Positions 11,901 through 30,740 of a stretch of DNA of 64,000 nucleotides are shown piece by piece (the stretch's first letter is position 1; each line of letters opens with the position of its first letter). The position numbers and the translations under genes are program-made. The DNA comes from Candidatus Eremiobacteria bacterium (GTDB lineage Bacteria; Vulcanimicrobiota; Vulcanimicrobiia; Vulcanimicrobiales; Vulcanimicrobiaceae). The notes beneath the pieces were generated by a model. The model ran no database searches, had not been told where the DNA came from, and saw nothing but the letters and a program-made list of their open reading frames with translations. Location: contig CAVTRC010000001.1 in assembly GCA_963737065.1 (NCBI GenBank), forward strand, positions 1,216,001 to 1,280,000, written 5' to 3'.

Positions 11901-12791
11901 GTAGTCTTGGTTGTATCCGCTCAGTCCGACGTAGTAGCTGAAACGGCGATCCGGCGTTGCGCCGCCCGCTTCGACCTTTGCCTGGTGATAAAACGTCGGC
12001 GAACCGATCCCGCCTGAGAGGTCGAGATAGCCGGGATACGTCCCGGTCTTGAAGACCTGGTTGATGAATCCCGCCGTTCCCGCGGATGACGACGACGATG
12101 GGCCGCCGCCCGTGTACACTTGCAGTTCTTGTAGCCCGAGATTCGATTCTGTCGACGAATTGTAGTTGTCGAACGCGCGATTGACGGGGATCCCGTCGTA
12201 TTCGAATCCGGTGAAGAAGAATTGCGAACCGCGGACGTATGTCGGCTGATTCCATCCCATTCCGCCCGCCGGAACGGTAACGCCCGGAACGGACGAAATG
12301 GCGGAGTAGGCGCTGTTGAGGTTGCCGCCGCCGCCGAGCGCGCTTGCGGTCGTAATCGCTTGCGAGTTGACGCTGTAGATATCGGAACCGACGCCGGCTT
12401 TTACGAGCGAGCCGGCGGACGTAGCCGATACTTTCGCGATCGTCTTGAGTGCCTTCTCCATCCTGAAGGACAACGTCAGATTGTTGTCCGCGAAAACGGT
12501 AACGCCGGCGTATGAAACCGGCTGATAGCCGTCCTTTTCCAGTGAGACGGTATATGTGTCCGGTGCAAGGGAGAGGAAGTTGAATCTGCCAGATGCGTCA
12601 CTCGTTGTCGTGCCGCTTTGCGAAGCGGATACGACTTTGACTGACGCGCCTGCAATCGGACTTCCGGCCGTGTCGGTGACGATGCCGCCGATTCCGCCCG
12701 TCGTACCGGCCAGTGCCCATGTTACCTGGCCGAAGACGAGTGCAATCAATGCGAACGCCGTCGCCGCACGTCGAAAGATTTGACGTATCAT
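8955..12791 (-). CDS. TonB-dependent receptor (Oar-like) with N-terminal carboxypeptidase-regulatory-like domain
   Basis: Signal peptide, GGIVTD..G.PIAGASV...G.F.F.L.PDTYTV domain, plug (YVRG...YDGIPVN), beta-barrel ending FFQLTVKV; 1278 aa. Confidence 0.9.
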   Translation of the reverse strand: MIRQIFRRAATAFALIALVFGQVTWALAGTTGGIGGIVTDTAGSPIAGASVKVVSASQSGTTTSDASGRFNFLSLAPDTYTVSLEKDGYQPVSYAGVTVFADNNLTLSFRMEKALKTIAKVSATSAGSLVKAGVGSDIYSVNSQAITTASALGGGGNLNSAYSAISSVPGVTVPAGGMGWNQPTYVRGSQFFFTGFEYDGIPVNRAFDNYNSSTESNLGLQELQVYTGGGPSSSSSAGTAGFINQVFKTGTYPGYLDLSGGIGSPTFYHQAKVEAGGATPDRRFSYYVGLSGYNQDYRFLNNANGGSMANDPTGIYTGQSFVAVGPQLINGTARSETPECITGTATTPASVANLPWLAPDLGGSATNCYVPFNGLYGNATDPAQIADRENVVNFHFRIPRKNGTSDDVQLLGSSSMLNTSFYTSPNDAGGYSAYTNALFGNAYCNPQTSLSAGGAACTPTPYVNYPAYVDATIYNAPFGTPIKNLTTSQYYQPSSPTNRAFQSELPATLRDAIMNDTGIVKLQYTHQFSSNAFARVFGYTFFSDWTQAGANSAQDCYLNGGLGPCFSGVAANYDLITHTGGGQIELVDQLTSQHLLQLTANYTTANVVRYNNTGYTASSGPLSVSPIGVVSQSGSTFSCWDEQPGSPQYDSTVPCVPSGSAFKLWGSNAANGAYNGGALGPNAAAAGANWVTLWNGNAAGTLNTVKPKFAFVSLSDQWRPNDKLLLNAQLRYEDYQYGLVANPGTATDFYAQIISNDVCQNASGVVLTKPLLPGAPPPAPVIYTPSCAAGTVVAGYPNGIPAGYSHPSFSAISPSSYTIADLSPRLSATYTQSPDTVWRGSIGRFTEPPISASVQYLNSSGNSLSTWNATLPLGFYTPFHPIPAMNATQADLSLEHHIHGTDMSFKISPFYNYTVGYQEQSFIGPNFVTQAPVGNFRSMGVEAAFTKGDFAKDGLSTQVALTYTNAKVQYTNWFGTNQLNAVNQAISQFNVLTKGGGGSPYYCSGGKDAAGNPSPGVASPSCGAFGGIAITNPYYNMNQQGLVNTSGWYAPADTGLSPTNNPSTTYYDSPWNLEWLLNYRKQKFATTLSLSVVQGSAYGGPLDVVGVDPRVCTANATTSGIVLASPKTDPFACDALTAGGTFSNAAGQLFVPNPQTGSFAYPGEYRNPWLMVGNLAFTYDLSPRISANITLANLFHSCFGGTKAPWTSAFAPSPYVCGYQANGFFISNFYNGTSPFDTAANGFTPPAFETNSYSPRSFSDAGTVPSPLNVFFQLTVKV

Positions 12792-14785: not shown

Positions 14786-15603
14786 TCGCGCCGCCGACGC
14801 TTGCAGGTGTTTGGTCAGCGACCGTTACGCCGGTCGATGCGTCGTTCGAACCCGATGCGGCGCGTGCCGCGGCCTTTTATCAAGAACTGCTCGCCAACGG
14901 CATCGACGGGCTGAACGTTCTCGGAACCAACGGCGAAGCGATGTCGCTCAGCACGCGTCAGCGCATCGCATTCATGCGTGGAATCGTTGAGGCCGGGATT
15001 CCGAAACCCCAAACGATGTTCGGCACGGGCGCCTGCGCGCTCGATGATGCGGTGGAACTCAATCGCGCCGCGGCGGACCTCGGAGTAGCAGCCGCGCTGA
15101 TTATTCCGCCGTTCTACTATCGCGACACGAGCAACGACGGTATCGTGCGCTTCTTCGACGCACTCTTCACGCGCGCGAGCCCGCCGCCGGTTCTCCTGTA
15201 TAATTTCCCGCGCATGAGCGGTATCACGTTCACCGCGTCGCTCGTCGACCGCTTGTTGAATGAATTCCCGGGCAAGATCGTCGGCATGAAGGACAGCTCG
15301 AACGACGCGACGTTACAGCGTGAGCTACTGCTGCGCCATCCCGAATTGCGCGTATTCACCGGTTCGGAAGAGACGCTTGCCGACGTGTTGAGCTTCGGCG
15401 GCGCGGGTTGCATTTCGGGAAGCGTTGCACTATGGCCGCGCCTCGCCGGCGATTTCTACCGCACGCGCGATGCGAAATTCGGCAAAGAGCTTGCGGAAGC
15501 ACGCCGCTCCGTCGACGGCGGCTCGTTGATCGCAACGGTGCGCGAACGCATCGCCCGCGCGCGCGCCGACGACAACTGGCGCCGCGCCGTTCCGCCGCTT
15601 TAG
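14782..15603 (+). CDS. dihydrodipicolinate synthase (DapA-like) family aldolase
   Basis: GTNGEA, PPFYY, LYNFP, GMKDSS (Schiff-base Lys); 4-nt overlap with the upstream gene. Confidence 0.9.
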   Translation: MIAPPTLAGVWSATVTPVDASFEPDAARAAAFYQELLANGIDGLNVLGTNGEAMSLSTRQRIAFMRGIVEAGIPKPQTMFGTGACALDDAVELNRAAADLGVAAALIIPPFYYRDTSNDGIVRFFDALFTRASPPPVLLYNFPRMSGITFTASLVDRLLNEFPGKIVGMKDSSNDATLQRELLLRHPELRVFTGSEETLADVLSFGGAGCISGSVALWPRLAGDFYRTRDAKFGKELAEARRSVDGGSLIATVRERIARARADDNWRRAVPPL

Positions 15604-17597
15604 ACCGTGCGCGCTTTCCGCCCGATCCAACGATACAACGCAAACGGGACCAAGACGAATGCGATGACGGCGAGCGGCGTGGCGAGCGCAAAGTTTGCGG
15701 CAAGTAGCGCGAACGGTTGCGACGGATCCGCGACGGAGATCGCACCGCGCTGGGCGGCAACGATGATTCCGGCATAGAGCACGCCCCAGATGCTTTCACC
15801 AACGATCAACCCCGACGCTACGAGCACGCCCAGGCGGCGCGCTGCGTCGGCATTGTTTTTGTTGCGAGTCCAATTGTTGTAGATCGCGCCGAAGAGCGCG
15901 CCGACGACAACGGGCGCCGTCGCCTGCGGCGGAAGATAAATGCCCAAGCCCACGGCGAGCGGCGGAAAGCGAAAGCGTCCCGACATGCGGCCGAGCTCAT
16001 CGATCACGATGACGGCGATGCCGATCAACACACCGATGCCGATGAGGTTCCACGGGGTCGTCGCGCCGATCACGCCTTTCGCGAGCGTCGAAATGAGCAC
16101 CGCTTGCGGCGCGGCCAATCCGTTTCCACCGAATCCGTATGCCTTGTTCAAGACGTCGAGTATGGGCGGGATAATGATCGCACCGAACAACACGCCGACG
16201 ATCAACGCGACTTGTTGCCGCCACGGCGTCGCACCGACCAGCTGACCCGTCTTCAGATCCTGAAGATTGTCATTTGAGATCGTGGCGACGTTGATCAAAA
16301 TCGTCGTGATGAACAACGCGTACGCTACCAACGCGGGGGTCGTGACGGGGTCGGCTTTTGCGACGAGCAGCAGCAAGAGCGCCGCACCGATGACCGAGAG
16401 AATCGCCATGCCGGAAACGGGCGAGTTCGACGATCCGATCAGTCCGGCCATATACCCCGTCGCCGCCGCGACGAACAATCCGACGATTACGACGTAGACC
16501 ATGCCGACGACGATCAGCGGCACAGCCATCGATTGCAACGGTGTGCCCGAGAGAAACACGTACAACAGGATCCCGAGCGGAACAAAGCACGCGAGCGCGA
16601 TCAAAAGAACGACGTTGAAGGGAAGATCGTGCTCGGTGATGTCGAGCGTCGCGCCCGCCTTGCGTGCTCGCGATGCGGCGACCGAGGACATAACGCCTTT
16701 CCACACCGGCGCCGCCAACCGCAGCAACGTCCAAATGCCGGCAATGCCGATCGTGCCGGCGCCGATAAAACGCACGTCGTGCGCGCGGATCGCATTTGCG
16801 ATATCGGCGATCGCGCCCGCCTGCGGATGCAACGCCGAAAACAGTGGAATCAAAATACCCCACGCGATAAAGAGGCCGCCAAAGATCGCGCTACCGACGC
16901 TCAGCCCGATGAGGTGACCGACCCCCACGAGCGCGAGCGAGGTCGAAAATCCCAAACCGGTAATCGATGGACCGACCTTCGCGAAGCCGTCGAACTCGCT
17001 CGCAAAGAGTCGAATCGCCGTACCGACCTGCACTGCGGCTGACGCGATCGAACTCACGATGAGCGCGATCAGCCCCAAGCGATTCTCGGCTGCGGCTTCG
17101 TCCTTTTGTTTACCGGCGCCGACGTGTAAAACTTCCGCCGCAGCGACCCCTTCCGGATACGGAAGATCCGAACCGGTCACGAGCGCGCGGCGCAACGGCA
17201 CGCTGTACATCACGCCGAGAATTCCGCCGAACGCACAGACCGCGAAAGACTGCCAGAACGGAAAGTGCGTCCACCAACTCACCATGACGAGTCCGGGCAA
17301 GACGAAGATGACCGAGGACAGCGTGCCCGCGGCCGAAGCAACGGTCTGCACGATGTTGTTCTCCCAGATCGTCGCGCTGCGGAATCCGCGTAAGACCGCC
17401 ATAGAAATCACCGCCGCCGGAATCGACGACGCGAACGTCAACCCGACCTTGAGGCCGAGATAAACGTTAGCAGCGGTAAAGACGAGCGTAATCAGGCCAC
17501 CGAGAAGCAGCCCGCGAATCGTTAACTCGAGTGCGCCCGCGGGACGGGAAACCGGCTCGATGACACCAGCCGGGCTTTCCGGTTGTGTGAGTTGCAC
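15600..17597 (-). CDS. OPT family oligopeptide transporter
   Basis: ELTIRG, NVYLGLKVG, SIPAAVIS, LPYPEG, GSSNSPVSG, DNLQDLKTG, APQA. Start approximate. Confidence 0.95.
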   Translation of the reverse strand: MQLTQPESPAGVIEPVSRPAGALELTIRGLLLGGLITLVFTAANVYLGLKVGLTFASSIPAAVISMAVLRGFRSATIWENNIVQTVASAAGTLSSVIFVLPGLVMVSWWTHFPFWQSFAVCAFGGILGVMYSVPLRRALVTGSDLPYPEGVAAAEVLHVGAGKQKDEAAAENRLGLIALIVSSIASAAVQVGTAIRLFASEFDGFAKVGPSITGLGFSTSLALVGVGHLIGLSVGSAIFGGLFIAWGILIPLFSALHPQAGAIADIANAIRAHDVRFIGAGTIGIAGIWTLLRLAAPVWKGVMSSVAASRARKAGATLDITEHDLPFNVVLLIALACFVPLGILLYVFLSGTPLQSMAVPLIVVGMVYVVIVGLFVAAATGYMAGLIGSSNSPVSGMAILSVIGAALLLLLVAKADPVTTPALVAYALFITTILINVATISNDNLQDLKTGQLVGATPWRQQVALIVGVLFGAIIIPPILDVLNKAYGFGGNGLAAPQAVLISTLAKGVIGATTPWNLIGIGVLIGIAVIVIDELGRMSGRFRFPPLAVGLGIYLPPQATAPVVVGALFGAIYNNWTRNKNNADAARRLGVLVASGLIVGESIWGVLYAGIIVAAQRGAISVADPSQPFALLAANFALATPLAVIAFVLVPFALYRWIGRKARTV

Positions 17598-17639
17598 CCG
17601 CCTTCGATTGTCGGCGCTGCGCAAGGACCCTTTCGTCGA

Positions 17640-17996
17640 TCAGGCAGCGCGTTGGACGAAGACGGCGATCCGGCGTCCGTCGTGCCCGTGCAGGGGCGCG
17701 ACGGTGACGTGAAGATCGCTCACTGCGGCAGCAGCGGGACTTGCGGTCCGGGGGTTACGCCACGCCGCAGTGAGAGCGCGCACGACGCGATCGATCGCTC
17801 CAGGCAGCGCGTCCACGCCGGAGCTCGCGTCGTACAACGATGCTAAGGGTTCTTCAGCGCTGGAGGGCCCGGCCATGACGACCCGATACGCCTCGTCGAG
17901 AATGAAGCAGTAGGGAATGGCGCCGGTAAAGCGCGGACGATTCGGGATTGCATCGTAGGTTGCTTGGGTGATTGCGACCACGGACGAGTCCTCCAT
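17640..17996 (-). CDS. hypothetical protein, possibly a PAS-like fragment
   Basis: 118-aa ORF divergent from the LuxR gene; CFILDEAYRVV...VTVAPLHG...IAVFVQR. Confidence 0.55.
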   Translation of the reverse strand: MEDSSVVAITQATYDAIPNRPRFTGAIPYCFILDEAYRVVMAGPSSAEEPLASLYDASSGVDALPGAIDRVVRALTAAWRNPRTASPAAAAVSDLHVTVAPLHGHDGRRIAVFVQRAA

Positions 17997-18070
17997 GACC
18001 CTATGGTACGAGAGGCGGCACGCGAAAGAATCCGGGGAAACACCTGGTTTTCGGACGAATTACGACGGCC

Positions 18071-20635
18071 ATGTCCGCCCTGATCGGCCGCGAACGGGAA
18101 ATTGCGACCGCTCTTGGCGCGCTCAAGATCGCCCAATCGACGCCGGTGGCGCGCTGCATCGCCATCGAAGGGCCGCCCGGAATTGGAAAGACCGCGCTGT
18201 TGACCACGATCCGCGAGCAATCGGGCTCGTGGCTTCAATTCGGCACGTCAGCGCATCGGATCCAGCAGACGCTGGCCTTCGGAGTCGTTCGGCGGCTCCT
18301 CGCGGCGCTGTCGGAAGCGCTCGGAGATGAATCCGCCCGCTATACGACCGGACTTGGTGAACTTGACGGCAGTGCAACCGATGGCGGCACGACGCTTTTA
18401 CGTCTGCTCGAGGGCGTAACACTAGATCACCCGGTGCTCATCGCCTTAGATGACGCGCAATGGATCGACGAAGAAAGTGCGACCGCGCTCAACGCGATTT
18501 TGCTCAGTCTCGCTGATCGTCCGCTCGCGCTCCTGACGACCGAACGGATCGATCCGTCGGAACCGCTTTCGCTGCTTGACGCAGCAGTACGCATCAGCCT
18601 CGGTCCCCTCGATCGTCGCGCGGCTATGGGTGCTGCGCGCGCTGAATTTCCGGAGGCACCCGTAGACGTCATCGATGCAATCGTGGCGCACTCCGGCGGA
18701 CATCCGATAGATCTCGTCACCCTCGCTCAATCGGCGCGCGATCGCGCAGCCCGCACTGGGAGTGACGTTGCCGAAAGTTTGAGATCGGTCACGGTTCGCA
18801 ACATCCAATCGCTTCCGGCGCAGCTGCGGGAATTTCTTCAAATCATGTCGCTGCTGAACGAGCCGATCGACTATAACTTGTTGCGCCGAATCTGGCTCGA
18901 CGAAAACCATCTCGTCAATCTCATCACCGCGAGTTCAGAACGCTTTTTAGTACAGGAAAGCACGCACTTGCGGTTCGCACATACCATGCTCGCCGATGCC
19001 GTACTCGAGACGATTCCTGTTACCATTCCAATGCGCCGGCGCATCATCGCTGCACTGCGGAGCGTCTCGAATCCCACGCTGGAAGACCGCTTGCAGATAG
19101 CGGAGCAAGCGCAAGCGTGCGGCGATCGCGACCTTGCGATTACGACCTTAGCCGCGCTTGCGAGCGAAGCGATCGAACGTGGGCAGGTGCGCTTGACGAT
19201 CAGCGTCTCCGAGCAGATGCTGAAAATCGGTGAGCCGCCTGACGACCGGTTCGTACCGTTCTATTCCGGCTACGGCCGCGCGCTACAGTTCATCGATCGC
19301 CTCGATCGCGCGAACGAAGTATTTCAACACGCGTTAGATGAAGCGACGCGGCGGAAATTGCCCGGCGTCGCTGCGCTTGCGGCGCAACTTGTCCTCGCGC
19401 AATGGTTCAACGACGAAAACGAGCGCGCCGTAAAGAACTACGAACGATTTTCAAACCAATTCACCGCGCCGTTCGATCGCGCTGCGCTTCACGCGGCGGG
19501 AATGTGGTTCGCGGCCTGCGACGCCGATATCGCGCGCTTCGAGAAAATCGACGCGGAGTTGACAGCCCTCGACGTTCCACTTCCGCCTGAACTAGCGTTG
19601 CGCCGTCACATCGTTCGCGCGTACATGATGATGCGCGCGGGCAATTTCGTCGAGTCGCGCGCCGCTATATCGCGCGTGGAAGACACCGCGTCGAGCGTTC
19701 CGGACGCGTTGCGGAACTTGGGGCAATTTGCGCGCACGTTCGTCGAACTCTGCTTGCTCGGCGTGCACGAGGCGAATGTCGGCGCGCTGCGAACGCGGCT
19801 GCGCGACGATGAAAACGGTTCGTGGCTCGACTACCTCTATGCGTGGACCGAATTGTTCGCGGGCCGGTATCACGATGCACTGGTCGTCGTCGAAAACGCT
19901 TTACAGCGCTATAGCGATCCCATTCACCGGCGCCGGATGCTGACTCTCGCTGCTGCGCTGAGCGTCATGCAAGACGAACCGAGTTCGTTTTTGTCCTCGA
20001 TCGAGAGCGACGTATCGCGCTTACTCACAGGTGAGCGCGGTGTGTGGTTCATGCCGCTCGCATCGTGGGCGTCACTCCTGCCGCGGACGTCCGAATCGCG
20101 CGCTCGGGTGCTCTCACGGATCGTTCTCACACATCTCTCGAAGCCCAGCGATCCACTCGTTATTACGCTCGCGACGCCAATTGCACTTAGCGCGCGTAAA
20201 CGCGGCGACACGGAGCTGCTCGAAGCACTCGCTCAACCCGAAGGGCTGTGGGATGATAAACGACCGCTCATCGCCGCCGAACTCGCGCTCGCGCGTGCGC
20301 TCGCGCGCGAGGGACTGGGGCGCGCTCCCGCACGCGATGTGGACGACGCATGCGACGAGTGCCGCAATCTTGGGCTGTCGGCAATCGTCGAGCTCGTTTC
20401 GCGCTCGGCGCAAAAGACAAGCGCGCTGAAAGCGGAGGCGAAATCTCCGCTTACGGCTCGCGAACGGCAGATCGCAAGGCTCGTTGCGCAAGGTATGTCG
20501 AACCGCGAGATCGCCGAGCAGCTTGTGTTGAGCGAACGCACCGTTGAAGGCCACATCGCCAACATTTTCAGCAAACTCAACCTCTCGTCGCGCACCCAAA
20601 TTGCGGCTTGGGTGTTGCGCGCTACGACTGCATAG
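18071..20635 (+). CDS. large ATP-binding regulator of the LuxR family (AAA_16 + LuxR HTH)
   Basis: LIGRERE, Walker A GPPGIGKT, Walker B LDDAQWID, C-terminal LTARERQIARLVAQGMSNREIAEQLVLSERTVEGH. Confidence 0.92.
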   Translation: MSALIGREREIATALGALKIAQSTPVARCIAIEGPPGIGKTALLTTIREQSGSWLQFGTSAHRIQQTLAFGVVRRLLAALSEALGDESARYTTGLGELDGSATDGGTTLLRLLEGVTLDHPVLIALDDAQWIDEESATALNAILLSLADRPLALLTTERIDPSEPLSLLDAAVRISLGPLDRRAAMGAARAEFPEAPVDVIDAIVAHSGGHPIDLVTLAQSARDRAARTGSDVAESLRSVTVRNIQSLPAQLREFLQIMSLLNEPIDYNLLRRIWLDENHLVNLITASSERFLVQESTHLRFAHTMLADAVLETIPVTIPMRRRIIAALRSVSNPTLEDRLQIAEQAQACGDRDLAITTLAALASEAIERGQVRLTISVSEQMLKIGEPPDDRFVPFYSGYGRALQFIDRLDRANEVFQHALDEATRRKLPGVAALAAQLVLAQWFNDENERAVKNYERFSNQFTAPFDRAALHAAGMWFAACDADIARFEKIDAELTALDVPLPPELALRRHIVRAYMMMRAGNFVESRAAISRVEDTASSVPDALRNLGQFARTFVELCLLGVHEANVGALRTRLRDDENGSWLDYLYAWTELFAGRYHDALVVVENALQRYSDPIHRRRMLTLAAALSVMQDEPSSFLSSIESDVSRLLTGERGVWFMPLASWASLLPRTSESRARVLSRIVLTHLSKPSDPLVITLATPIALSARKRGDTELLEALAQPEGLWDDKRPLIAAELALARALAREGLGRAPARDVDDACDECRNLGLSAIVELVSRSAQKTSALKAEAKSPLTARERQIARLVAQGMSNREIAEQLVLSERTVEGHIANIFSKLNLSSRTQIAAWVLRATTA

Positions 20636-20900
20636 TGTATGCGAACCCGACGGCGCGCGGCGCGTTCGCCTGTTCGCCAGTCAGTTTCGCATGCTCGTCC
20701 TGCAGATTCTCTTCCGCGTATTGACGCATCTGTTCCATGTCGGCGTCGCTCGGCGGCTGCGAGAGGCCAAGCGTTGTTTGAATCAATTCTTTGAGTGCAG
20801 CAGAATCGTTTTGTGCGGCTTGCCACTTCGCGAATGTACCGGGATCGCGGAGTGCGTGCATAAATCCGGCCGCGATTGCGGCGTGTTGGACCGTGGCCAT
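20622..20900 (-). CDS. candidate RiPP precursor peptide (Nif11/NHLP-like helical leader, short C-terminal core)
   Basis: GAGGA RBS just upstream of ATG; FMHALRDP and SDADMEQM leader-like segments; tail APRAVGFAYTMQS; co-oriented downstream of TfuA-YcaO and the methyltransferase. The ORF is well supported; the precursor role is inferred. Confidence 0.6.
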   Translation of the reverse strand: MATVQHAAIAAGFMHALRDPGTFAKWQAAQNDSAALKELIQTTLGLSQPPSDADMEQMRQYAEENLQDEHAKLTGEQANAPRAVGFAYTMQS

Positions 20901-20964
20901 AGTGTCCTCATAAGTGAAGGGGTGTTCGGGTCTCTGACACCTATCGGGGAATCGGTTCGGCGAG

Positions 20965-21819
20965 TTAGCGCGCTACGATGATTCGCATCGATTCGCGATA
21001 GAGAATCGTGCGGTCACCGGCCCACTCCGTGAGCCGTTCATATACGCGCATGCGCGCATCCTCTGGCAACGTACCAACGTAGTACAAAAGACCCATGCGG
21101 CGCCGGAGAATGTCGATTCCGACAGCACGTTGGACCGTAAAATCATCGATCCGAACGTCGGAGAAGCCGCAGTCATGGAGCATGCTTTCCAACGTTTGCG
21201 TGGCGAAGATACGCGGGTCGCCCGGGTTGACCGGCGCGTAATCCGGATAGATTTCACGCACCCACCCGCGTATGGACTGCAACAACTGCATTGTGATTTC
21301 CGATGGGAGAGGCGGACGCGGGACGACGAAAGCAAAAACTCCCCGTTGTCGCAACACGCGGCGCACTTGCTGCAACGCCGCGTTTACATCACGGATCAGC
21401 ATCACGACGAGATGAGACGCCACTGCATCGAACGCATCGTTCGTGAAAGGCATTGACTCGGCCGCAGCAACAACGAGATCGTCAACGTTCGCAGCTGGAA
21501 GTCGCCGCTGCGCGCGCGCGATCTCTCCCGGCGAAAGATCGATACCGCTCACGCGAATCGCCCGATGCCGCGCGATCAGTTGCTCGAGCAGTACGCCATC
21601 GCCGCAACCGATATCCAACACGCGACCCCGGGAGACATCCACGGCGTCGACGAGGCGACCGTAGCTCGTCCGTCCGCGTTCGTCAACGAAACCTTCGAGG
21701 ACGCGCTCAGTGACGGACCGGCGCTCATCGTGAAACGCGCGGTGGTACTCGTCGAAATACTCAGGACGCGGAGCTTTGCCGGAAAGCACCGCCCGCATAA
21801 CGTCGCTCTCGTTGCTCAT
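20965..21819 (-). CDS. class I SAM-dependent methyltransferase
   Basis: Motif I VLDIGCGDG, GIDLS, MPFTNDAFDAV, VRRVLRQRG. Start at 21819 or 21849. Confidence 0.9.
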   Translation of the reverse strand: MSNESDVMRAVLSGKAPRPEYFDEYHRAFHDERRSVTERVLEGFVDERGRTSYGRLVDAVDVSRGRVLDIGCGDGVLLEQLIARHRAIRVSGIDLSPGEIARAQRRLPAANVDDLVVAAAESMPFTNDAFDAVASHLVVMLIRDVNAALQQVRRVLRQRGVFAFVVPRPPLPSEITMQLLQSIRGWVREIYPDYAPVNPGDPRIFATQTLESMLHDCGFSDVRIDDFTVQRAVGIDILRRRMGLLYYVGTLPEDARMRVYERLTEWAGDRTILYRESMRIIVAR

Positions 21820-21934
21820 AGAAACGCAAACGGAAGATGCCTCATGCATCTCCCATTCACTGTTCGCGGGATATAGCCTTAGCGCGCGGCCGTCAAACGC
21901 GGGTGACACGGATACGGGTAAGGACGTTGCTGCT

Positions 21935-23887
21935 TTAGCGCAGCGCGAACGGATTAAGGAGCGCACGTGCGCGCGGTCCCAAGTGCCCCGTGAAGATCAC
22001 GTGTTCTAGGCGCGGAACGATCGTTCGCACAACGCTGATCGGCACGTCGGGTGGCGCCAGGTCCACCGCGACCGCGCTCGTGATGCCGTATTGTGAAAGC
22101 GACCGTAACGTCGCGCGAAGATCGTCCGCAAGATCGTCCGTCGTGCGGTCGGGGATCTGATCGAGCGCTTTGCGCGGCGTCGGCATGTCGAAGTACCAGG
22201 CGTCCCTCGGCAACGACTCGAGTCTTCGCGCATGCGAACCCGAGATTCCCGCGTCTTCGCCAACCCGCAAAATATCTTCCCGTGCAGCCTGAATGTCGAC
22301 GACACGGCTTTGCACGCACTCCGTAAGCGCGCGCGTGAGCGCATGTGCCGGCGATAGCGCGCAACCTAACCCGATATGCGCCATCGGCGGCGTCACGCCC
22401 GGCTCGCTTACGGTTGCAAGCACGGTCAAAGGCAATGGCCCTTCTTCAAGGGCGAGCGCGCGGACCGTCAGGCCGGCGTCATGAATATTTTGAACGAGTC
22501 CGTCGATCGAGGCAATGCCGGTGGGAAACGTGATCTCCGGTGCCAACGGCAAATCCTTCGCCGCCTCGCCCAAGAAGAAACGCGGCACAATCGAACATTT
22601 GACGTGGAACATGCACCAGATGTGGCGTTCGATCAGCTCGCACAGCGCGTGATAGATCGCTTCGGTTAGGTTATTCCCTGAAGCCAGTCCGTTGGTTGAC
22701 GTGATATCGAAAAGACGGTCGCCGAACCATGGACACTGCACCATCGCAACCGGGACGGGAATCGCGTCGCCCGAGATCAGTTCGGTTCCGAGCACGCAAT
22801 CGACGACGAGCTCGCGGGCATCCGAGCGTAAACCGGTCGCTTCGAGATCCATACGCTCGCCGACGATCCGCAAGGACTCGCGAAAGACCGGAAGGCGCAC
22901 GACCGATCCGATTTGACGTTCCGTCGCTTCCATCACCGCACTGGCAATGGCGGCATCAGAGGTCACGCCCTTACCGTTGTAGACGCCGAGTAAATCGACG
23001 GAATGCGGCACGAGCGCTGAGTACGTGGGAATGCCGGTCCGATCCAGATACGTGGTGTCGGCGACGCGCGTAATTCCATAACATTCGCGCAAGCGTGGCA
23101 ATACCGCGAGCGTCGCTTCAAACGGTACGGCGCGATCGTACGTGCCCGGCGCTTTGGGAACCGATTGCGGGAGCACGATCGGCGAGGTATCGATGGAGTC
23201 ATGCTGTGCGATGGCGCGCACCGTTGGTGACGCGGCGTGCGATCGCGGCGCGGCGGCGGTGCGCTCGATAAAGCGCAACACTGTGCGCATCGCAAAACGC
23301 GCATCCCAACGCTTGAGATCGCCATGCGCCCGCGCGATGGAGATGAACGCTTCCCGTGCATGCAGCGGGACGCATTCATAAACGTCCTCCCACGTACGGT
23401 CCATATAGAAGATTCGTCGCGCCCGGTCAATGAGTACATCGTGTTCCGCCCGCGTCATCGCAGCGCAGCGATATAACAAACGCGCGACATGCCGGACATT
23501 GACCATCGGGACGGTAAGCGACTCAAATGTTTCGGGATGCGTGAGCAGCGCCACTTCATCGTCGCCGTCGATCTTCTCAGCAACGTACCAGTTCGCGATC
23601 GCACCAAGCGGCGTGAAGCCGTACGGCGCGCACTCGGCCGCACGCAATGCACCCATGCTCGACGCACCAAACATTCGCGCGTGAAGCGTCGCTGCGTAGC
23701 ATTCCTTGGGCGAAGGCGCAAGATCGTGATGAAAGACGCCGTCGATCAGAAGAACCGCGTCGTATTCTTTTGCGGCCGCAAAGACATCGTTGCGCGACGC
23801 GGGCGGCAGATAGACTAATTCGTCGCGTCCGATTCGATCGCACGGCGGTAACGATGGGCCGCAAAAAACCGCGACGCGTTTCTCCAC
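21935..23887 (-). CDS. TfuA-YcaO fusion protein (predicted peptide thioamide synthetase)
   Basis: TfuA part: VFCGPSL, LIDGVF, GASSMGALRAAE, DDEVAL, LTVPMVNVR. YcaO part: GITRVAD.T.LDRTGIP, GKG...ASAVMEATER, STNGLASGNN..EAI.HALCELIERH, RALTECVQSR...AREDI. One uninterrupted 650-aa frame. Confidence 0.93.
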   Translation of the reverse strand: MEKRVAVFCGPSLPPCDRIGRDELVYLPPASRNDVFAAAKEYDAVLLIDGVFHHDLAPSPKECYAATLHARMFGASSMGALRAAECAPYGFTPLGAIANWYVAEKIDGDDEVALLTHPETFESLTVPMVNVRHVARLLYRCAAMTRAEHDVLIDRARRIFYMDRTWEDVYECVPLHAREAFISIARAHGDLKRWDARFAMRTVLRFIERTAAAPRSHAASPTVRAIAQHDSIDTSPIVLPQSVPKAPGTYDRAVPFEATLAVLPRLRECYGITRVADTTYLDRTGIPTYSALVPHSVDLLGVYNGKGVTSDAAIASAVMEATERQIGSVVRLPVFRESLRIVGERMDLEATGLRSDARELVVDCVLGTELISGDAIPVPVAMVQCPWFGDRLFDITSTNGLASGNNLTEAIYHALCELIERHIWCMFHVKCSIVPRFFLGEAAKDLPLAPEITFPTGIASIDGLVQNIHDAGLTVRALALEEGPLPLTVLATVSEPGVTPPMAHIGLGCALSPAHALTRALTECVQSRVVDIQAAREDILRVGEDAGISGSHARRLESLPRDAWYFDMPTPRKALDQIPDRTTDDLADDLRATLRSLSQYGITSAVAVDLAPPDVPISVVRTIVPRLEHVIFTGHLGPRARALLNPFALR

Positions 23888-23889
23888 TA

Positions 23890-23929
23890 TAAAAAGACCC
23901 CCACCGATGTCATCTACACCGGCGGAGGT
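23890..23929 (-). terminator. Rho-independent terminator abutting the TfuA-YcaO start codon
   Basis: Minus strand ACCUCCGCCGGUGU-AGAUG-ACAUCGGUGGGGGU then CUUUUUA; 14-bp stem with three G.U pairs. Confidence 0.75.
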
Positions 23930-23959
23930 AAAGTGTAACGGCTACGCGGCACTACGGTT

Positions 23960-24253
23960 TTACGGTCGGGTTGTCGACATCGGTGACGGGGTTTTCATCG
24001 ACCCCGAACTCGTGCCGGTGCTCGGACTCGCCATCGCTCCGGGCGTCGCTTTGGGATTGGGCGAACCGCAGTTGCCGTTCGGAGTCATCGTGCCCGGCAT
24101 TTCGGAAGTGCTGCTGGTTTGAGCGCCCGAACTCGGGGAGGGACATGGAGAAGCCGTAGATCCTGAGGTCGTTTGAGCATTTGCCGTTACGCCGAGTGCG
24201 CCCGCAAGAACGAACGCGCCGGCGATAGCGGCGCTTCTAAGCCAATTCTTCAT
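23960..24253 (-). CDS. small secreted Ser/Thr/Pro-rich protein
   Basis: Sec signal peptide ending ANA-Q; low-complexity mature region with two Cys; followed by a terminator. Confidence 0.7.
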   Translation of the reverse strand: MKNWLRSAAIAGAFVLAGALGVTANAQTTSGSTASPCPSPSSGAQTSSTSEMPGTMTPNGNCGSPNPKATPGAMASPSTGTSSGSMKTPSPMSTTRP

Positions 24254-24319
24254 AGCGGGCCGGTACCCGCGCTTTGCGCCGCAGTAACGCAGCTGCGCCT
24301 CGCTCGGCGGCTATGCCGC

Positions 24320-24793
24320 TTACGCGCGATCTTCCCCGCCCGCGGATTCGTTCAAGACGCGTTCGATGGCAGCTTGGACGCGTTCGAATCCTTTGCCGCC
24401 TGCCTGAAAATGGCGTAGCTCATGCGCGCGATCGAACACGTAGAATGCGGGGACGAATTGATTTTCGAAACGATCGACGATCGTGTGCGCATTGTCGATC
24501 GCGACCGGCTGCGTCAGCTGCATGTGCTCGTTCGCATCTTTGGTCACCGCATCGACGTCGAGTTCGTCTTCGGATCGCGGCTGGTGCACCGCGACGAACG
24601 CAACGCCGCGATCGGCGAACGTGTCGCGCCACGCTGCGAATTGGCCGGCGGTGTCGTGGCACATAACGCAACTTTGCGACCAAAATGAAACGACGACCGG
24701 AAGTCCGCGCAGCTCTTCAGCTTTGGGCTCGCCGTTGACCCACGCGCTAACGCCCTCCAATGAAGGCAGAGTGCTTCGCATCCGCAGTGTCAT
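24320..24793 (-). CDS. TlpA/YkuV-like thiol-disulfide oxidoreductase
   Basis: FWSQSCVMC CxxC, VAVHQPRSE, FENQFVPAFYVFD; directly after the peroxiredoxin, as in Bacillus ykuU-ykuV. Confidence 0.88.
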   Translation of the reverse strand: MTLRMRSTLPSLEGVSAWVNGEPKAEELRGLPVVVSFWSQSCVMCHDTAGQFAAWRDTFADRGVAFVAVHQPRSEDELDVDAVTKDANEHMQLTQPVAIDNAHTIVDRFENQFVPAFYVFDRAHELRHFQAGGKGFERVQAAIERVLNESAGGEDRA

Positions 24794-25348
24794 TTATGCC
24801 TTTTGGAGCAGCGCTTTGCCGGGCTTCCATTCGGCCGGGCACAGACCGCCGGTTTGCAGCGCCTGGAGCACCCGAAGCGTTTCATCGACGCTGCGGCCGA
24901 CGTTGTCGTCCGTCACGACGGCATATTTCAAATCGCCTTCCGGATCGATGATGAAGAGCCCGCGCTGCGCGACGCCGGTTTTTTCATCGAGCACGCCGTA
25001 CGCGCGCGCGGTTTCTTTCGTGAAGTCCGAAAGGAGCGGGAATTTCGTCCCCGCAATGCCGTTCTTTTCACGCGGCGTATTGAGCCACGCCCAGTGTGAG
25101 AACACGGAGTCGACGGACGCGCCGAGGATCTCGCAGTCGAATTCCTTGAACTCGTCGCAGCGATCCGATAACGCGGTAATTTCCGTCGGGCAGACGAACG
25201 TGAAGTCGAGCGGATAGAAGAAAAAGACCAACCATTTGCCGCGATAGTCGGTGAGCTTGACCTCTTTGCCGAGGTCTCTTGCTCCGGTCGCGTCTTTCGT
25301 GCTCGCGAGGTTGAAATCGGGTGCCGGTTTACCGACTTGCGCCAACAT
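24794..25348 (-). CDS. ahpC: 2-Cys peroxiredoxin (AhpC/YkuU)
   Basis: FFYPLDFTFVCPTE, RGLFIIDPEG, GRSVDE, LCPAEW. Confidence 0.93.
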   Translation of the reverse strand: MLAQVGKPAPDFNLASTKDATGARDLGKEVKLTDYRGKWLVFFFYPLDFTFVCPTEITALSDRCDEFKEFDCEILGASVDSVFSHWAWLNTPREKNGIAGTKFPLLSDFTKETARAYGVLDEKTGVAQRGLFIIDPEGDLKYAVVTDDNVGRSVDETLRVLQALQTGGLCPAEWKPGKALLQKA

Positions 25349-25499
25349 TGAGATTCGTTCCACTTTCTACATCGGGAAGTAACGAGCTGCGGCCGCATGA
25401 ACCGGCCCGCACTCGAAGTTTGCGAATCCGAATGTACGCAAATCCGGGCGTCCGCGAAAATGACTTTCAGCGCAGACCCGCAATAATGTCGCACGTTAT

Positions 25500-26146
25500 C
25501 GACATAACGTAGTACGCCTCAATGCCATACACTGAGCATGGGGGCGGTTTATTCTTAGGGCATGGAACCGCCAAAAACTCTCCTCGAAGCTGTTCGCATG
25601 TTCTCCGATCCGAACGAAGCGCATCGGTACTTCGCCTCAATCCGCTGGGCTCACGCCGTGGCCTGCCCCCGGATCGGGTACGGATCAGCCGATGTTCGGG
25701 AGATTCGCGGAAGGCGGCCTCGATGGTTCTGCCGCGACTGTAAGCGGCAGCTCACAGCCAAGGTCGGCACGATTTTTCAGGATAGCTCCATCGGCTTCGA
25801 TAAGTGGCTCCGGGCCGTATGGCTCCTTACCGCCTGCCGCAACGGCGTGTCGTCCTATGAAGTCCACCGTGATCTTGGTGTGACCCAGAAGACAGCTGGT
25901 TTATGCTTCACCGTATCCGTCACGCGCTTAGTAGTAAGACGTTCGAAAAGCTAAACCGACTGTAGACACTCGCGGATGGAGGCCGGTTGATACACCGCCC
26001 GCTGGCATCGTCCCATCCTGGGACCTTCCGCCGCCCAGCGCGACACCGTGAACGAACGCGGTTCGCGCGACTCTACGATCAGCCTACCGCTCCCATTTCC
26101 GGCTTTCTAAGGTCGAGCGGCGCGAGGCGTCTAGTATATTATGTCG
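25500..26146 (+). mobile_element. degenerate IS1595-family element (internally deleted)
   Basis: Imperfect TIRs CGACATAAcgtagtaCGCCTC (25500-25520) and GAGGCGtctagtataTTATGTCG (26124-26146) bracket a transposase fragment; no matching TSD. Confidence 0.65.
25562..25954 (+). pseudogene. IS1595-family transposase N-terminal fragment
   Basis: Zn-ribbon (CP...WFCRDC), KVGTIF, GVSS...LGVTQKTA, then a frameshift where WFMLHRIR is expected; DDE domain absent. Confidence 0.85.
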
Positions 26147-26238
26147 CGTACTGGCGACATTACTGATTTGACGCAAACGGGGCGACCAGACCTTAAGCTA
26201 GCTCACGGTTGCTGTTTCGTGGTATTGCTCCTTTGATC

Positions 26239-26267
26239 TTGACCATAGCTTGGTACCATGGTACCAT
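26239..26267 (+). promoter_or_regulatory. sigma70-type promoter with overlapping palindromic operator of the TA operon
   Basis: TTGACC (26239-26244)-N17-TACCAT (26262-26267); perfect 16-bp palindrome TGGTACCATGGTACCA (26251-26266). Confidence 0.75.
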
Positions 26268-26324
26268 ATCAGCATGGGCGACCGGGGGGTCACCTATCCT
26301 CAGTCCTCTAAACGGGAGACAACC

Positions 26325-26543
26325 ATGGCACTGAAACAGATCAATATTCGAGTCGATGAGGAAACGGCGGAGCAACTCAAGCTTCGCGCCACCATTGAAA
26401 AGCGGTCCGTCAACGAGATCGTTGGGGAATCTCTGCGCGAATATTCGAAGCGCCACCCCGTTTCGCGCAAAGACATGCTCGCTATGGTGCGGGCCATTGC
26501 GCGTGAGGATGAATCGTTATTGGAAGAGTTGAGAAAAGGCTAG
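26325..26543 (+). CDS. ribbon-helix-helix (Arc-like) antitoxin
   Basis: KQINIRVDEETAEQLKLRA...RSVNEIV RHH pattern; GGGAG RBS; 1 nt upstream of the toxin gene. Confidence 0.82.
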   Translation: MALKQINIRVDEETAEQLKLRATIEKRSVNEIVGESLREYSKRHPVSRKDMLAMVRAIAREDESLLEELRKG

Positions 26544-26544
26544 A

Positions 26545-26943
26545 TTGCAATATCTCACTGAAGACGACGTTCTTGCGATTTACAGAGAGGTCATCGGAGA
26601 ACCCGCATTGCGGTATCCCAGTGGCCTTTCTTCTGCAGTAGGACGCCCGCAGCAGTCGGCATTTGGTGAAGACGCATATCCGACGATTCAGCTAAAGGCT
26701 GCAGCCCTTATGCAGTCGCTTGCCGAGAATCAACCTTTCGTTGACGGCAATAAGCGCATTGCATGGATTTGCGGAAAGCTATTCTTGCAGATTCACGGAT
26801 ACACGATGCATGCGACGGATAAGGAGGGAGCAGAACTCTTTTTAGAACGCATCGCAAATGGCATGACAATTGAGGACTTGTCGGAGTGGATTAGTCGCCA
26901 TATTTCCGTGCTTATTACAGACGAAAACGCAGGACTGACTTAA
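26545..26943 (+). CDS. doc: Doc/Fic-family (death-on-curing) toxin with variant Fic motif
   Basis: LSSAVGRPQ..FGEDAYP...KAAAL..SL..NQPFVDGNKR; TTG start. Confidence 0.88.
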   Translation: MQYLTEDDVLAIYREVIGEPALRYPSGLSSAVGRPQQSAFGEDAYPTIQLKAAALMQSLAENQPFVDGNKRIAWICGKLFLQIHGYTMHATDKEGAELFLERIANGMTIEDLSEWISRHISVLITDENAGLT

Positions 26944-26994
26944 AGTCTTTTTTTGTGCCATCCAGTGGTCATATCCGTTCGCTACAATTGAACC

Positions 26995-27752
26995 ATGAAC
27001 GAGCCGACCACCCTCCTCGAAGCCGTTCGCATCTTTGCAGACCCGCAAGTCGCTCATGACTACTTCCTCGGCCTCCGCTTTCCAAACGGTATCGCCTGCC
27101 CTCGGCACGGATGCGGTTCGGCGGACGTAGCAAAGATTTCAAACCGTAACGCGTGGCGCTGCCGCGACTGCAATCGCCAATTTATGGCCAAAGTCGGCAC
27201 GATCTTTGAGGACTTTGAGGACAGTCCTATCGGCTTCGACAAGTGGCCCGCGGCTATGTGGATGTTGTCCTCATGCCGTAACGGTGTATCATCCTGCCAT
27301 CGCCCGGGCGATCGGCGTCTGTCAGAAGACGGCGTGGTTCATGCTGCACCGCTTGCGTCACGCTATGAAAACCAAGACCTTCGAGCGTCTTTCGGGCGAG
27401 ATTGAAGTAGACGAGACGTTCATCGGCCCGCGTGGTCGCTCGATGACTCGTCGCCATGTTCTCCCGCCATCGAAGAAAGGCGGACGCGGTCCGACGTTCG
27501 GAAAGACGACCGTCATGGGATTCCGCGAACGCGGCGGAGATGTTCGCGCGTTTGTCGTTAAAGACAATCGCCGGAACACGCTGCTTCCGAAAGTTTTCGA
27601 GAACGTAATGCCCGGCGCGACCGTCTACACCGATGTGCTCGGCTCTTATCACGGCCTACGCGAAGCGTTCGTTCACCAAGTCATCAATCATGCCGAGTCC
27701 TATGTTGACGGTCGCATTCATACGAACAGCATTGAAAACTTCTGGAGCGTGC
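26995..27752 (+). pseudogene. IS1595-family transposase, 5' part (frameshifted, IS21-interrupted)
   Basis: Zn ribbon CPRHGCGS...CRDC, FEDFED duplication, frameshift near 27297, EVDETFIG, VYTD, INH...Y, HTNSIENFWSV. Confidence 0.9.
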
Positions 27753-27800
27753 TGTTGACGCCGGCTGAAAATTGACCCACTTTGCTATGGGATCGCCGGT

Positions 27801-29616
<1,816 letters not shown>

Positions 29617-29666
29617 CGCGAACTTACGTTCGCGTCAGATCAGGCGGAACGGCTTAGTCAACTCTG

Positions 29667-30740
29667 TTAGGCGGCGACTTCAATACTATTCTGACTATTG
29701 CGCGCAAGTCGGTCTTGCATCGGTTGCAACCGATAAAACACAACCGTTGCCAGCTGCCGTTTGTGAGAACGCATCGCAGCTCGATGCGTCTTGCCCTCAG
29801 CTCGCTTACGCGCATAATAGAGTTGGCCCGGATGATTGCGCGTGCGGTTTTGGACCAACGCAATAACATGGAGTAATCGATTGAGCTGACGATCACCACC
29901 GGTGTTGACACGGACGCTCGCGTTGCGACCGCTCGAACACGGAACGGGCGCCGCCCCGGCGCGCATCGCGAAGCTCGCGGCATTGCGATACATGCAAAGA
30001 TTGCCGGCATGTCCAATGATCCCGGCAGCAACGACAATGGAAACGCCTCGAAGCTCCAGCAATTCGGGCGCAAGGCGCTTAACGAAAGGGCGCAGTTGGC
30101 GTTCCAGCTGATTCACTGCAGCATTGAGCCGGCGGATTTCCGAGATCGCCTCGTCGACCTCATCAGCAAGCGCATCACCGGTATAGCTCTTACCGCGATG
30201 ACCCGTTAGAAGATCTGCTGCATTCTGCAATGCAATTTCGGTGGTCATGTTCGAGGGCAGCGGTCCAATCGCCAGCCGCAATGCGGCATCCCGCAGCCGA
30301 TTTACAGCCTCCGTCCGCTGTCGCACAAGTCGATCGCGGCGATCATAACGTAACCGGACTGCTTCCTGTTCATCCAGACGTTCGCAACGCCGCAAGCGAT
30401 CGGATTCGCGCAGAACTGCTTCGGCAATCGCTCGAGCGTCGAGTGGATCGGATTTTCCTCTTCGGCTTGCGTGTTTGCGGTGACGTTTAGTGAACGAACC
30501 TGGAACCTCGTATACGACGGCGTTGCTTTTCAGCAGAGCATCGGCGAAGCCACGTCCGAACGAACCACTTCCCTCAAGACCCCATTCAACGGTGCCAAAC
30601 GACCGTGCTCTTTCGATCGCAGTCGCATACCCTGCGGCGTTCGTTGCAATGGTGATCTCCGAGAGCGCTTTCCCAACTCCATCAACGAATACGATGGTGT
30701 GAGAATCCTTGTGACAATCGACGCCCGCAACGACGCGCAT
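29667..30740 (-). CDS. IS110-family recombinase/transposase (DEDD RuvC + Tnp20 domain)
   Basis: GVDCHK, GLEGSG, KSDPLDA (DEDD tetrad), GAAPVPCSSG (catalytic Ser), GGDRQLN; AAGGAG RBS; intact 357 aa. Confidence 0.96.
   Translation of the reverse strand: MRVVAGVDCHKDSHTIVFVDGVGKALSEITIATNAAGYATAIERARSFGTVEWGLEGSGSFGRGFADALLKSNAVVYEVPGSFTKRHRKHASRRGKSDPLDARAIAEAVLRESDRLRRCERLDEQEAVRLRYDRRDRLVRQRTEAVNRLRDAALRLAIGPLPSNMTTEIALQNAADLLTGHRGKSYTGDALADEVDEAISEIRRLNAAVNQLERQLRPFVKRLAPELLELRGVSIVVAAGIIGHAGNLCMYRNAASFAMRAGAAPVPCSSGRNASVRVNTGGDRQLNRLLHVIALVQNRTRNHPGQLYYARKRAEGKTHRAAMRSHKRQLATVVFYRLQPMQDRLARNSQNSIEVAA

Follow-up and report, generated by a model that had tools for sequence, protein, structure and literature searches.

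A compact set of genes for a fused TfuA-YcaO enzyme, a methyltransferase and a small precursor protein lies on the minus strand of a 64,000-nucleotide (nt) stretch of DNA from an uncultured soil-type bacterium, Candidatus Eremiobacteria (assembly GCA_963737065.1, contig CAVTRC010000001.1, positions 1,216,001 to 1,280,000). This whole stretch is called the window below, and all coordinates are window positions. A regulator gene on the plus strand converges on the set. An earlier sequence-only reading had taken the locus for a candidate system that makes a thioamide-containing peptide of the kind produced by ribosomes and then post-translationally modified (RiPP). The features and the basis of their assignment, including the open reading frame (ORF) listing and models made with AlphaFold2 (AF2), are as follows.

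18071 to 20635, plus strand: LAL-type regulator (large ATP-binding regulator of the LuxR family), 854 amino acids (aa), convergent with the precursor gene (ORF listing, Pfam, NCBIfam)
20622 to 20635, no strand: 14-nt stretch in which the precursor and regulator genes overlap at their 3' ends (ORF listing)
20622 to 20900, minus strand: precursor gene, 92 aa plus stop codon (ORF listing, ribosome-binding site, homologues)
20625 to 20660, minus strand: core cassette of the precursor, residues 81 to 92 (column statistics, AF2, complex model, tandem repeats in relatives)
20673 to 20900, minus strand: precursor leader, residues 1 to 76, five predicted helices (AF2, complex model)
20965 to 21966, minus strand: class I S-adenosylmethionine-dependent methyltransferase, 333 aa from a GTG start (ORF listing, Pfam)
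21935 to 23887, minus strand: TfuA-YcaO fusion protein, 650 aa (ORF listing, Pfam, NCBIfam)

The three co-oriented minus-strand genes agree to the base with those described in the sequence-only reading, and so does the AAA-LuxR regulator, which has positions 20622 to 20635 in common with the small ORF. The GAGGA ribosome-binding site proposed for the latter was also found, at 20905 to 20909 (minus strand), 4 nt upstream of its ATG start codon at 20900. No gene for an E1-like/ocin-ThiF partner, a dehydrogenase, a protease, an ABC exporter or ThiS was seen among the neighbour genes scanned, as had been noted before.

The fusion protein carries a TfuA domain (PF07812, residues 49 to 165, E 1.1e-27) and, in the same chain, a full-length match to YcaO (PF02624, residues 304 to 628, E 2.9e-50), so that TfuA covers residues ~1 to 210 and YcaO residues ~260 to 650, with a linker between them. 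The best solved relative of the YcaO half is the MJ1094 YcaO (6pe3, E 3.6e-27) and that of the TfuA half is the TfuA protein 6xp8 (E 1.6e-24, over residues 4 to 209). The acidic motifs SAVMEATERQ, HALCELIERH, and RALTECVQSR, which we take to be ATP/Mg-binding, align with MJ1094; E320/E323/R324 and E417/E420/R421 do so as well and are invariant among 19 homologues. Likewise invariant in this set are L644, N645, P646, and F647 of the YcaO tail. The protein ends ...RARALLNPFALR, the last residues being LNPFALR, and no PxPxP tail is present when the C-terminal sequence is read. The best NCBIfam models for the fusion are those of the YcaO and TfuA proteins of McrA-glycine thioamidation (TIGR03266 and NF033432).

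For the 92-aa ORF, 12 proteins of 92 to 93 aa with 60 to 100% identity were found (the window's own protein counted). In addition, when 1.84 billion representatives were searched exhaustively with a profile, 94 family clusters at 50% identity were obtained, 71 of them with E <= 1e-10; the weakest match, a 1016-aa protein, is probably spurious. These homologues and family clusters indicate that the ORF is a real gene and not a chance ORF. Every named member is labelled "hypothetical protein" by its source, and only 24 members were found in a collection of 5.8 billion proteins, suggesting that many loci leave the precursor gene uncalled. The ORF itself has no match in Pfam or NCBIfam.

Column statistics were calculated from an alignment of 51 family members. 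The leader columns had a mean entropy of 1.76 bits, and the most variable stretch was residues 86 to 89 (2.74 bits). P81, V84, G85, and Q91 were each conserved in 80 to 86% of the sequences, and no Cys, Ser, or Thr was conserved in the core. The cassette in the window consists of P81, two variable positions, V84, G85, the four hypervariable residues 86 to 89, M90, Q91, and S92, and its pattern in the family is P-x-x-V-G, four hypervariable residues, and x-Q. In the AF2 model of the precursor alone (predicted local distance difference test [pLDDT] score 72.7), helices span residues 2 to 17, 20 to 29, 33 to 44, 52 to 65, and 67 to 76, and the tail is disordered from residue 78 onward, cassette included.

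Tandem cassettes, in 2 to 6 copies, were detected by motif count in 8 of the 94 family representatives; in two others, P0161 and P0220, repetition is apparent by eye, which brings the multi-core representatives to at least 10. There are five copies in locus L039 and two in L019, and some family proteins contain two leader-plus-core units. Thiovarsolin precursors carry repeated cores, and a tandem arrangement of cassettes is a hallmark of a multi-core RiPP precursor; it is the strongest single piece of evidence on the nature of the 92-aa protein.

Other forms of the precursor were observed in the same leader family. A second core type consists of hydrophobic residues followed by F-N-G, and such cores are often trailed by His/Gly-rich tails that resemble metal-binding stretches (e.g., P0185, P0192, P0194, P0201, and P0210). 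A conserved follower helix of ~20 residues comes after the last core in some precursors (L001:3899-4255; P0148, P0150, and P0153). In L001, the closest relative, the precursor of the follower-helix kind is a second one, located between the YcaO and methyltransferase genes.

The small ORF and the enzyme genes are conserved together. The six-frame ORFs of 57 loci encoding relatives of the fusion protein, one genome per species, were searched with a profile of the small protein, and a homologue was found in 44 of them, which is the reverse of what the sequence-only reading had named as speaking against it (homologous fusions that lack a co-conserved small ORF). The homologue was always on the same strand as the YcaO gene and downstream of it, either after the methyltransferase gene or, where this gene is absent, directly after the YcaO gene. 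Of the 13 loci in which it was missed, L004, L015, and L028 stop at contig ends before the expected position, and L052 to L057 are six distant clusters in other phyla. The other four, L048 to L051, are divergent; by eye, a similar small ORF is located beside the regulator in L048, L049, and L050 and not in L051.

The cluster family occurs in a single order of Eremiobacterota only. Of 401 genomes sampled from the phylum, 57 were found to have the precursor, a figure to be read as a count only, as related genomes are not independent. Among the 247 high-quality genomes of this sample, 37 have it, and it occurs in 17 of 116 genera, all in only two families of one order. TfuA was identified in 77 of the 401 genomes, and comparison of the two tables places all 57 precursor-bearing genomes among these 77. 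The genome from which the window derives has one YcaO and one precursor.

The search for relatives of the fusion protein returned 1378 proteins at E <= 0.001 from 8000 scored candidates. Among the matches listed, relatives with 55 to 81% identity have both the TfuA and the YcaO domain, those that are named come from metagenome-assembled genomes of Eremiobacterota (Candidatus Aquilonibacter and Vulcanimicrobiaceae), and unfused YcaO proteins of ~420 aa follow with 49 to 68% identity. TfuA and YcaO were observed to be fused only in the closer relatives (L001 to L032) and to be encoded by separate genes in the more distant ones (L033 to L051); the open frames around TfuA are ~630 to 714 aa long in some genera and ~215 to 290 aa in others. 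The fusion thus looks like a derived state in the group.

A model of the complex between the fusion protein and the precursor gave a score of 0.72 (0.72, 0.73, and 0.66 in the individual runs), versus 0.01 for the best of three controls. Of 157 solved complexes, 116 attained the score mark, as did 2 of 215 mismatched pairs; these counts hold only roughly here because our own alignments served as the input for both partners. At least 68% of the contacts were common to the runs, and the pLDDT of the partner was at least 80. In the model, leader residues 10 to 36 and 55 to 66 touch residues 644 to 650 of the YcaO tail, whereas precursor residues 79 to 91 touch YcaO residues 385, 394 to 398, 504 to 507, 523 to 539, and 548 to 556, among them the invariant E523, Q526, S527, D531, R536, and D538. 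The leader is thus predicted to dock on the invariant C-terminal tail of YcaO, with the cassette placed in the YcaO domain.

Several observations favor thioamide formation over other YcaO reactions: TfuA is fused to YcaO; the closest solved relatives of the two halves are the thioamide-forming MJ1094 YcaO and a TfuA; the PxPxP tail, an E1-like partner, and a dehydrogenase gene nearby are all missing; and none of Cys, Ser, and Thr is conserved in the cassette. The PxPxP tail is a motif tied to azoline-forming YcaOs (10.1101/2025.07.11.664356). In habitats other than high-sulfide ones, YcaOs that form thioamides tend to work with a ThiS homologue and a TfuA hydrolase (PMC13063428). Two ThiS-family genes are located elsewhere in the genome, outside the locus.

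The methyltransferase belongs to class I (Methyltransf_11, E 8e-21), and its start is uncertain: the GTG at 21966 gives a protein of 333 aa whose gene overlaps the 3' end of the fusion gene, and the ATG at 21849 gives one of 294 aa. The AF2 model of the 294-aa form had a pLDDT of 93.2, with only residues 1 to 10 disordered. Among PDB sequences, the methyltransferase is most similar to LahSB (6uak, E 5e-10), which ranks third by fold (E 5.9e-16; template modeling [TM] score 0.57). The TM scores of the thiol S-methyltransferases TmtA (0.67) and GtmA (0.64) are higher, and the fold match to LahSB ties with those of many class I enzymes. Candidate methyl acceptors are the C-terminal carboxylate and a sulfur atom, neither of which is preferred. 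The enzyme is encoded in only 33 of the 57 related loci and is replaced by another type in 8 sister loci, suggesting that it is a tailoring option and not a core component.

Taken together, we read the locus as a thioamide-type RiPP cluster with a 92-aa precursor and give this reading a probability of about 0.78. The cluster, the precursor, the methyltransferase, and the LAL regulator of the sequence-only reading all find support in the co-conservation, the multi-core relatives, and the complex model; the Nif11 label given to the precursor and the idea of an intact intracellular product do not. In the mechanism that we propose, the folded five-helix leader (residues 1 to 76) would dock on the YcaO domain, with the tail L-N-P-F held between leader helices, and in this way the active site of YcaO would receive the core cassette (P81 to S92). 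Using ATP, the enzyme would activate a backbone carbonyl, and the fused TfuA domain would supply the sulfide, whose source is probably one of the two ThiS-family carriers with genes elsewhere in the genome; a backbone thioamide would result. The near-invariant V84-G85 is the first candidate for its site, and the thioamide would most likely lie at or beside these residues. The class I methyltransferase could then add a methyl group, a protease encoded elsewhere could release a short hydrophobic peptide of ~8 to 10 residues, and the convergent LAL regulator would either control the locus or respond to the product.

Some points weigh against this reading. The thioamide chemistry, its site, methylation, cleavage, and export are all steps that we infer, and no protease or exporter gene was seen among the neighbours in the locus. 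The YcaO and TfuA models were matched with 174.2 and 129.9 bits, respectively, versus equivalog cut-offs of 365 and 235.2; as both scores are under the NCBIfam cut-offs, the fusion is not orthologous to the archaeal McrA proteins. Of the 57 loci, 24 lack the methyltransferase (some of them are truncated, and 8 have a different methyltransferase type), and the methyl acceptor is not assignable by fold matches, where TmtA and GtmA outscore LahSB and many class I enzymes tie. Solved structures of YcaO enzymes bound to leader peptides exist, and the score of the complex model expresses model confidence only, part of which could reflect likeness to such structures. Finally, the leader is unusual in being conserved over its whole length and folded, which would be equally in keeping with a small protein left intact.

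The last point leads to the alternative in which the 92-aa product is thioamidated and methylated, never cleaved, and works intact. Thioamides are known in McrA (PMC5589413) and in the ribosomal protein uL16 (PMC13063428), both of which could be models for such a product, and the conserved leader with its five AF2 helices, as well as the lack of protease and exporter genes among the neighbours, would suit it. However, tandem cores behind one leader, found in at least 10 of the 94 family representatives with 2 to 6 cassettes, are difficult to explain in a protein working intact. They argue for excised short peptides, contrary to the earlier proposal of a small protein that may remain inside the cell. 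In addition, the core segment of four residues is hypervariable, and the distribution, 57 of 401 genomes, is patchy and accessory. Furthermore, sister clusters encode an exported peptide-binding lipoprotein: a family-5 solute-binding protein gene is located inside eight of them (L040, L041, L045 to L049, and L051), and 7 of the 9 copies read have signal or lipobox-like N termini. We regard an intact product as unlikely.

YcaO enzymes are known to install several backbone modifications (PMC13063428), and the thioamide site and product proposed here are inferences, so the enzyme could instead form an azoline, amidine, or macrolactamidine in the core while TfuA has another role. This is rather improbable, as TfuA is fused in frame with YcaO and occurs in all 57 precursor-bearing genomes sampled, the closest solved YcaO is thioamide-forming, and neither conserved Cys, Ser, or Thr in the cassette nor a PxPxP tail, E1-like partner, or dehydrogenase among the neighbours was seen. 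That the small protein is instead a partner of the LAL regulator, e.g., an anti-activator, with the YcaO substrate encoded elsewhere, is very improbable: although the small ORF and the STAND (signal transduction ATPase with numerous domains) regulator form the tightest pairing in all architectures (42 adjacent, 35 overlapping), the complex model puts the cassette in the YcaO domain by a large margin over controls, repeated cassettes would make no sense in a regulator-binding protein, and the small ORF adjoins TfuA or YcaO even where these are separate genes.

The regulator consists of an N-terminal AAA_16 STAND ATPase (residues 4 to 153, E 9.2e-18), a long middle region, and a C-terminal GerE/LuxR helix-turn-helix (HTH) domain (residues 793 to 847 of 854, E 1.1e-20), and the MalT and IniR models of NCBIfam match its C terminus. 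It therefore has the features of LAL proteins, i.e., an N-terminal AAA/STAND ATPase, a C-terminal LuxR HTH, and a size within ~850 to 950 aa. The pairing of precursor and regulator is the most constant feature of the clusters. We counted 42 convergent pairs, including that of the window, and all 42 regulators have a LuxR HTH; the genes overlap by 4 to 20 nt in 35 pairs, are 1 to 12 nt apart in six, and are 129 nt apart in one.

Some clusters have other proteins in or near this position. In L034 (10184 to 13210, minus strand), the convergent partner of the precursor is a 1009-aa protein with an adenylate/guanylate cyclase domain, an AAA domain, and tetratricopeptide repeats (TPR) and no LuxR HTH. 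A Ser/Thr kinase-TPR gene is found ahead of the small ORF, YcaO, and TfuA in distant clusters from Terriglobia and Myxococcota. The small ORF of these kinase-TPR clusters (L052:5134-8013, L053:339-3123, and L054:4942-7955) is a different one, ~90 to 120 aa long with a Cys-containing C terminus, located directly before YcaO. In L006 (14173 to 15588, minus strand) and ~20 loci, an extra AAA_16-only protein of ~470 aa without an HTH is encoded between the LAL regulator and a gene of the oligopeptide transporter (OPT) family; the window does not have it.

We tentatively suggest that the product serves a self-sensing circuit and is not an antibiotic, although we would not expect this to be the likelier outcome: the thioamidated peptide would be secreted, recaptured, and read by the paired STAND/TPR protein, as a cell-cell signal or as a reporter of metal status. 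Recapture could involve the exported family-5 lipoprotein in the sister subfamily and perhaps the OPT transporter in the window. Such a circuit would fit the swapping of the sensor output domain between lineages (LuxR, cyclase, or Ser/Thr kinase-TPR) with the pairing kept, as well as the restriction of hypervariability to four core residues, as in pherotype systems, and the His/Gly-rich tails in which some family members end. A role of the product in signalling or in metal binding is possible. The constant pairing with a STAND sensor makes it conceivable that Eremiobacterota use peptides for signalling, and a signalling peptide of this kind, if real, would be a RiPP counterpart of imported-peptide quorum sensing.

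Among known systems, the TfuA/YcaO thioamide RiPPs (thioamitides such as thioviridamide and thiostreptamide, the thiovarsolins, and the uncharacterised families of Malit et al. 2021, PMC8120280) are alike in having YcaO and TfuA beside a small precursor and tailoring enzymes such as methyltransferases, and fused tfuA-ycaO genes have been noted previously in Burkholderia thailandensis (PMC8120280). Unlike in those clusters, the precursor here belongs to no named family, its ~76-residue leader is predicted to be a helical bundle, and it is in a fixed pairing with a convergent, overlapping STAND regulator. The extra enzymes of the thioamitides are not present in the clusters described here. In addition, these clusters are confined to Eremiobacterota, a phylum mentioned zero times in the text of the survey (PMC8120280).

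The archaeal McrA thioglycine system, with its MJ1094-type YcaO, TfuA, and ThiS thiocarboxylate donor, is the closest solved relative of both halves of the fusion and also gives the best NCBIfam model for both, and the near-invariant Gly of the cassette is a candidate site here. Unlike in the McrA system, the putative substrate is not an enzyme subunit but a small dedicated precursor whose cores vary and are repeated, and the enzymes are fused. LahSB is a lanthipeptide C-terminal carboxyl methyltransferase that acts on the free C terminus of RiPP precursors (PMC11285071), and the core in the window is likewise located at the extreme C terminus of the precursor. However, the similarity to LahSB is generic for lidded class I enzymes, and most cores are internal in the multi-core relatives. 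Methanobactin operons, which encode a thioamide copper-binding RiPP, include an OppA-like binding protein, MbnE (PMC7558416), and resemble the sister subfamily, and only this subfamily, in the exported family-5 binding protein of the cluster. Unlike in those operons, no MbnBC-type genes were seen, the window's own cluster has no solute-binding protein gene, and there is no sign of metal binding.

The label "Nif11-like" applied to the precursor in the sequence-only reading was not upheld. None of the 51 family members scored above the Pfam gathering threshold for Nif11 (PF07862), with a single one at E 0.0089, no NCBIfam match was found, and the match of the Nif11 leader 9zn4 to the precursor model (Z 3.8, root mean square deviation 3.3 A, 62 residues aligned, rank 40) is within noise; membership in this family was rejected. 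Nif11 and nitrile hydratase leader peptide (NHLP) precursors are alike in having a long, structured, helical leader, which for the precursor here is predicted. They are defined by a Gly-Gly type junction motif, and unlike them, the precursor here has no such junction visible and no membership by hidden Markov model. NHLP leaders are recognised by an azoline-forming YcaO as a small protein and not as a short linear peptide (PMC12455567). Recognition of this kind is also predicted for the leader here.

No known fold could be assigned to the leader. A Foldseek search of its model against the PDB gave nothing at E <= 0.001, a profile search of PDB sequences gave nothing better than E 0.04, and a search of the ESM Atlas gave no usable match. 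The best VIA-align match (Z 5.9) was an unrelated winged-helix domain, which is in the chance range for helical models.

The pathway type of TfuA/YcaO thioamide RiPPs and fused tfuA-ycaO genes are thus already known. New are a precursor family that neither Pfam nor NCBIfam models cover, with multi-core forms occurring in nature and a distribution limited to a single order, and its fixed pairing with a STAND sensor, as well as the predicted folded leader and its predicted recognition by the YcaO tail. Neither the precursor family nor the architecture was found described in the literature searched, the scope of which excluded most subscription journals and supplements. RiPPs with thioamides are rare, and the product is known for few of their families. 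The present precursor family is named in no library, and gene calling has missed many of its members altogether. We know of almost no cultured members of the phylum and of no natural products from it. The three-gene system is compact and directly testable, with a one-protein TfuA-YcaO enzyme, a clear division into leader and core, and natural multi-core variants. If the model is right, insertion of the YcaO C-terminal tail into a folded leader would be a new substrate-holding mode for YcaO enzymes.

The only transporter gene near the cluster is the OPT gene at 15600 to 17624, which adjoins the regulator gene in 23 of the 57 loci. A homologue was identified in 300 of the 401 genomes of the phylum, versus 57 for the precursor, and it is unlinked from the cluster in four genomes (G101, G143, G146, and G233). 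It was rejected as a part of the cluster, because a gene so common in the phylum and unlinked in several genomes looks like a case of ordinary synteny. A pair of AhpC/TSA-like peroxiredoxin genes (24320 to 25363, minus strand) shares the strand of the fusion gene and lies immediately upstream of it. The pair is syntenic in 25 loci, including the rearranged clusters L040 and L041; it is absent from the more distant clusters and was therefore treated as neighbourhood only.

In the region from 17500 to 24500, neither promoter-like sites (2, versus 2.0 in shuffled sequences) nor terminator-like sites (4, versus 7.6) were more numerous than in the shuffles. A terminator-like hairpin followed by a T run is located at 23897 to 23929 on the minus strand, immediately upstream of the GTG start of the fusion gene, and its last position is also that of the region marked in the sequence-only reading. 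One to two kilobases past the peroxiredoxin pair, positions 25500 to 30740 hold a cluster of insertion-sequence genes, where the GC content drops to 0.55 to 0.58, with an IS21 element (IstB and integrase), an IS110 transposase, and pieces of IS1595 type (zinc ribbon and DDE), as well as a Fic/DOC gene (26545 to 26943). On the other side, the minus strand encodes a large protein (8955 to 12791) at a distance of ~5 kb from the cluster; it has a CarboxypepD_reg domain and matches the Plug domain of TonB receptors weakly.

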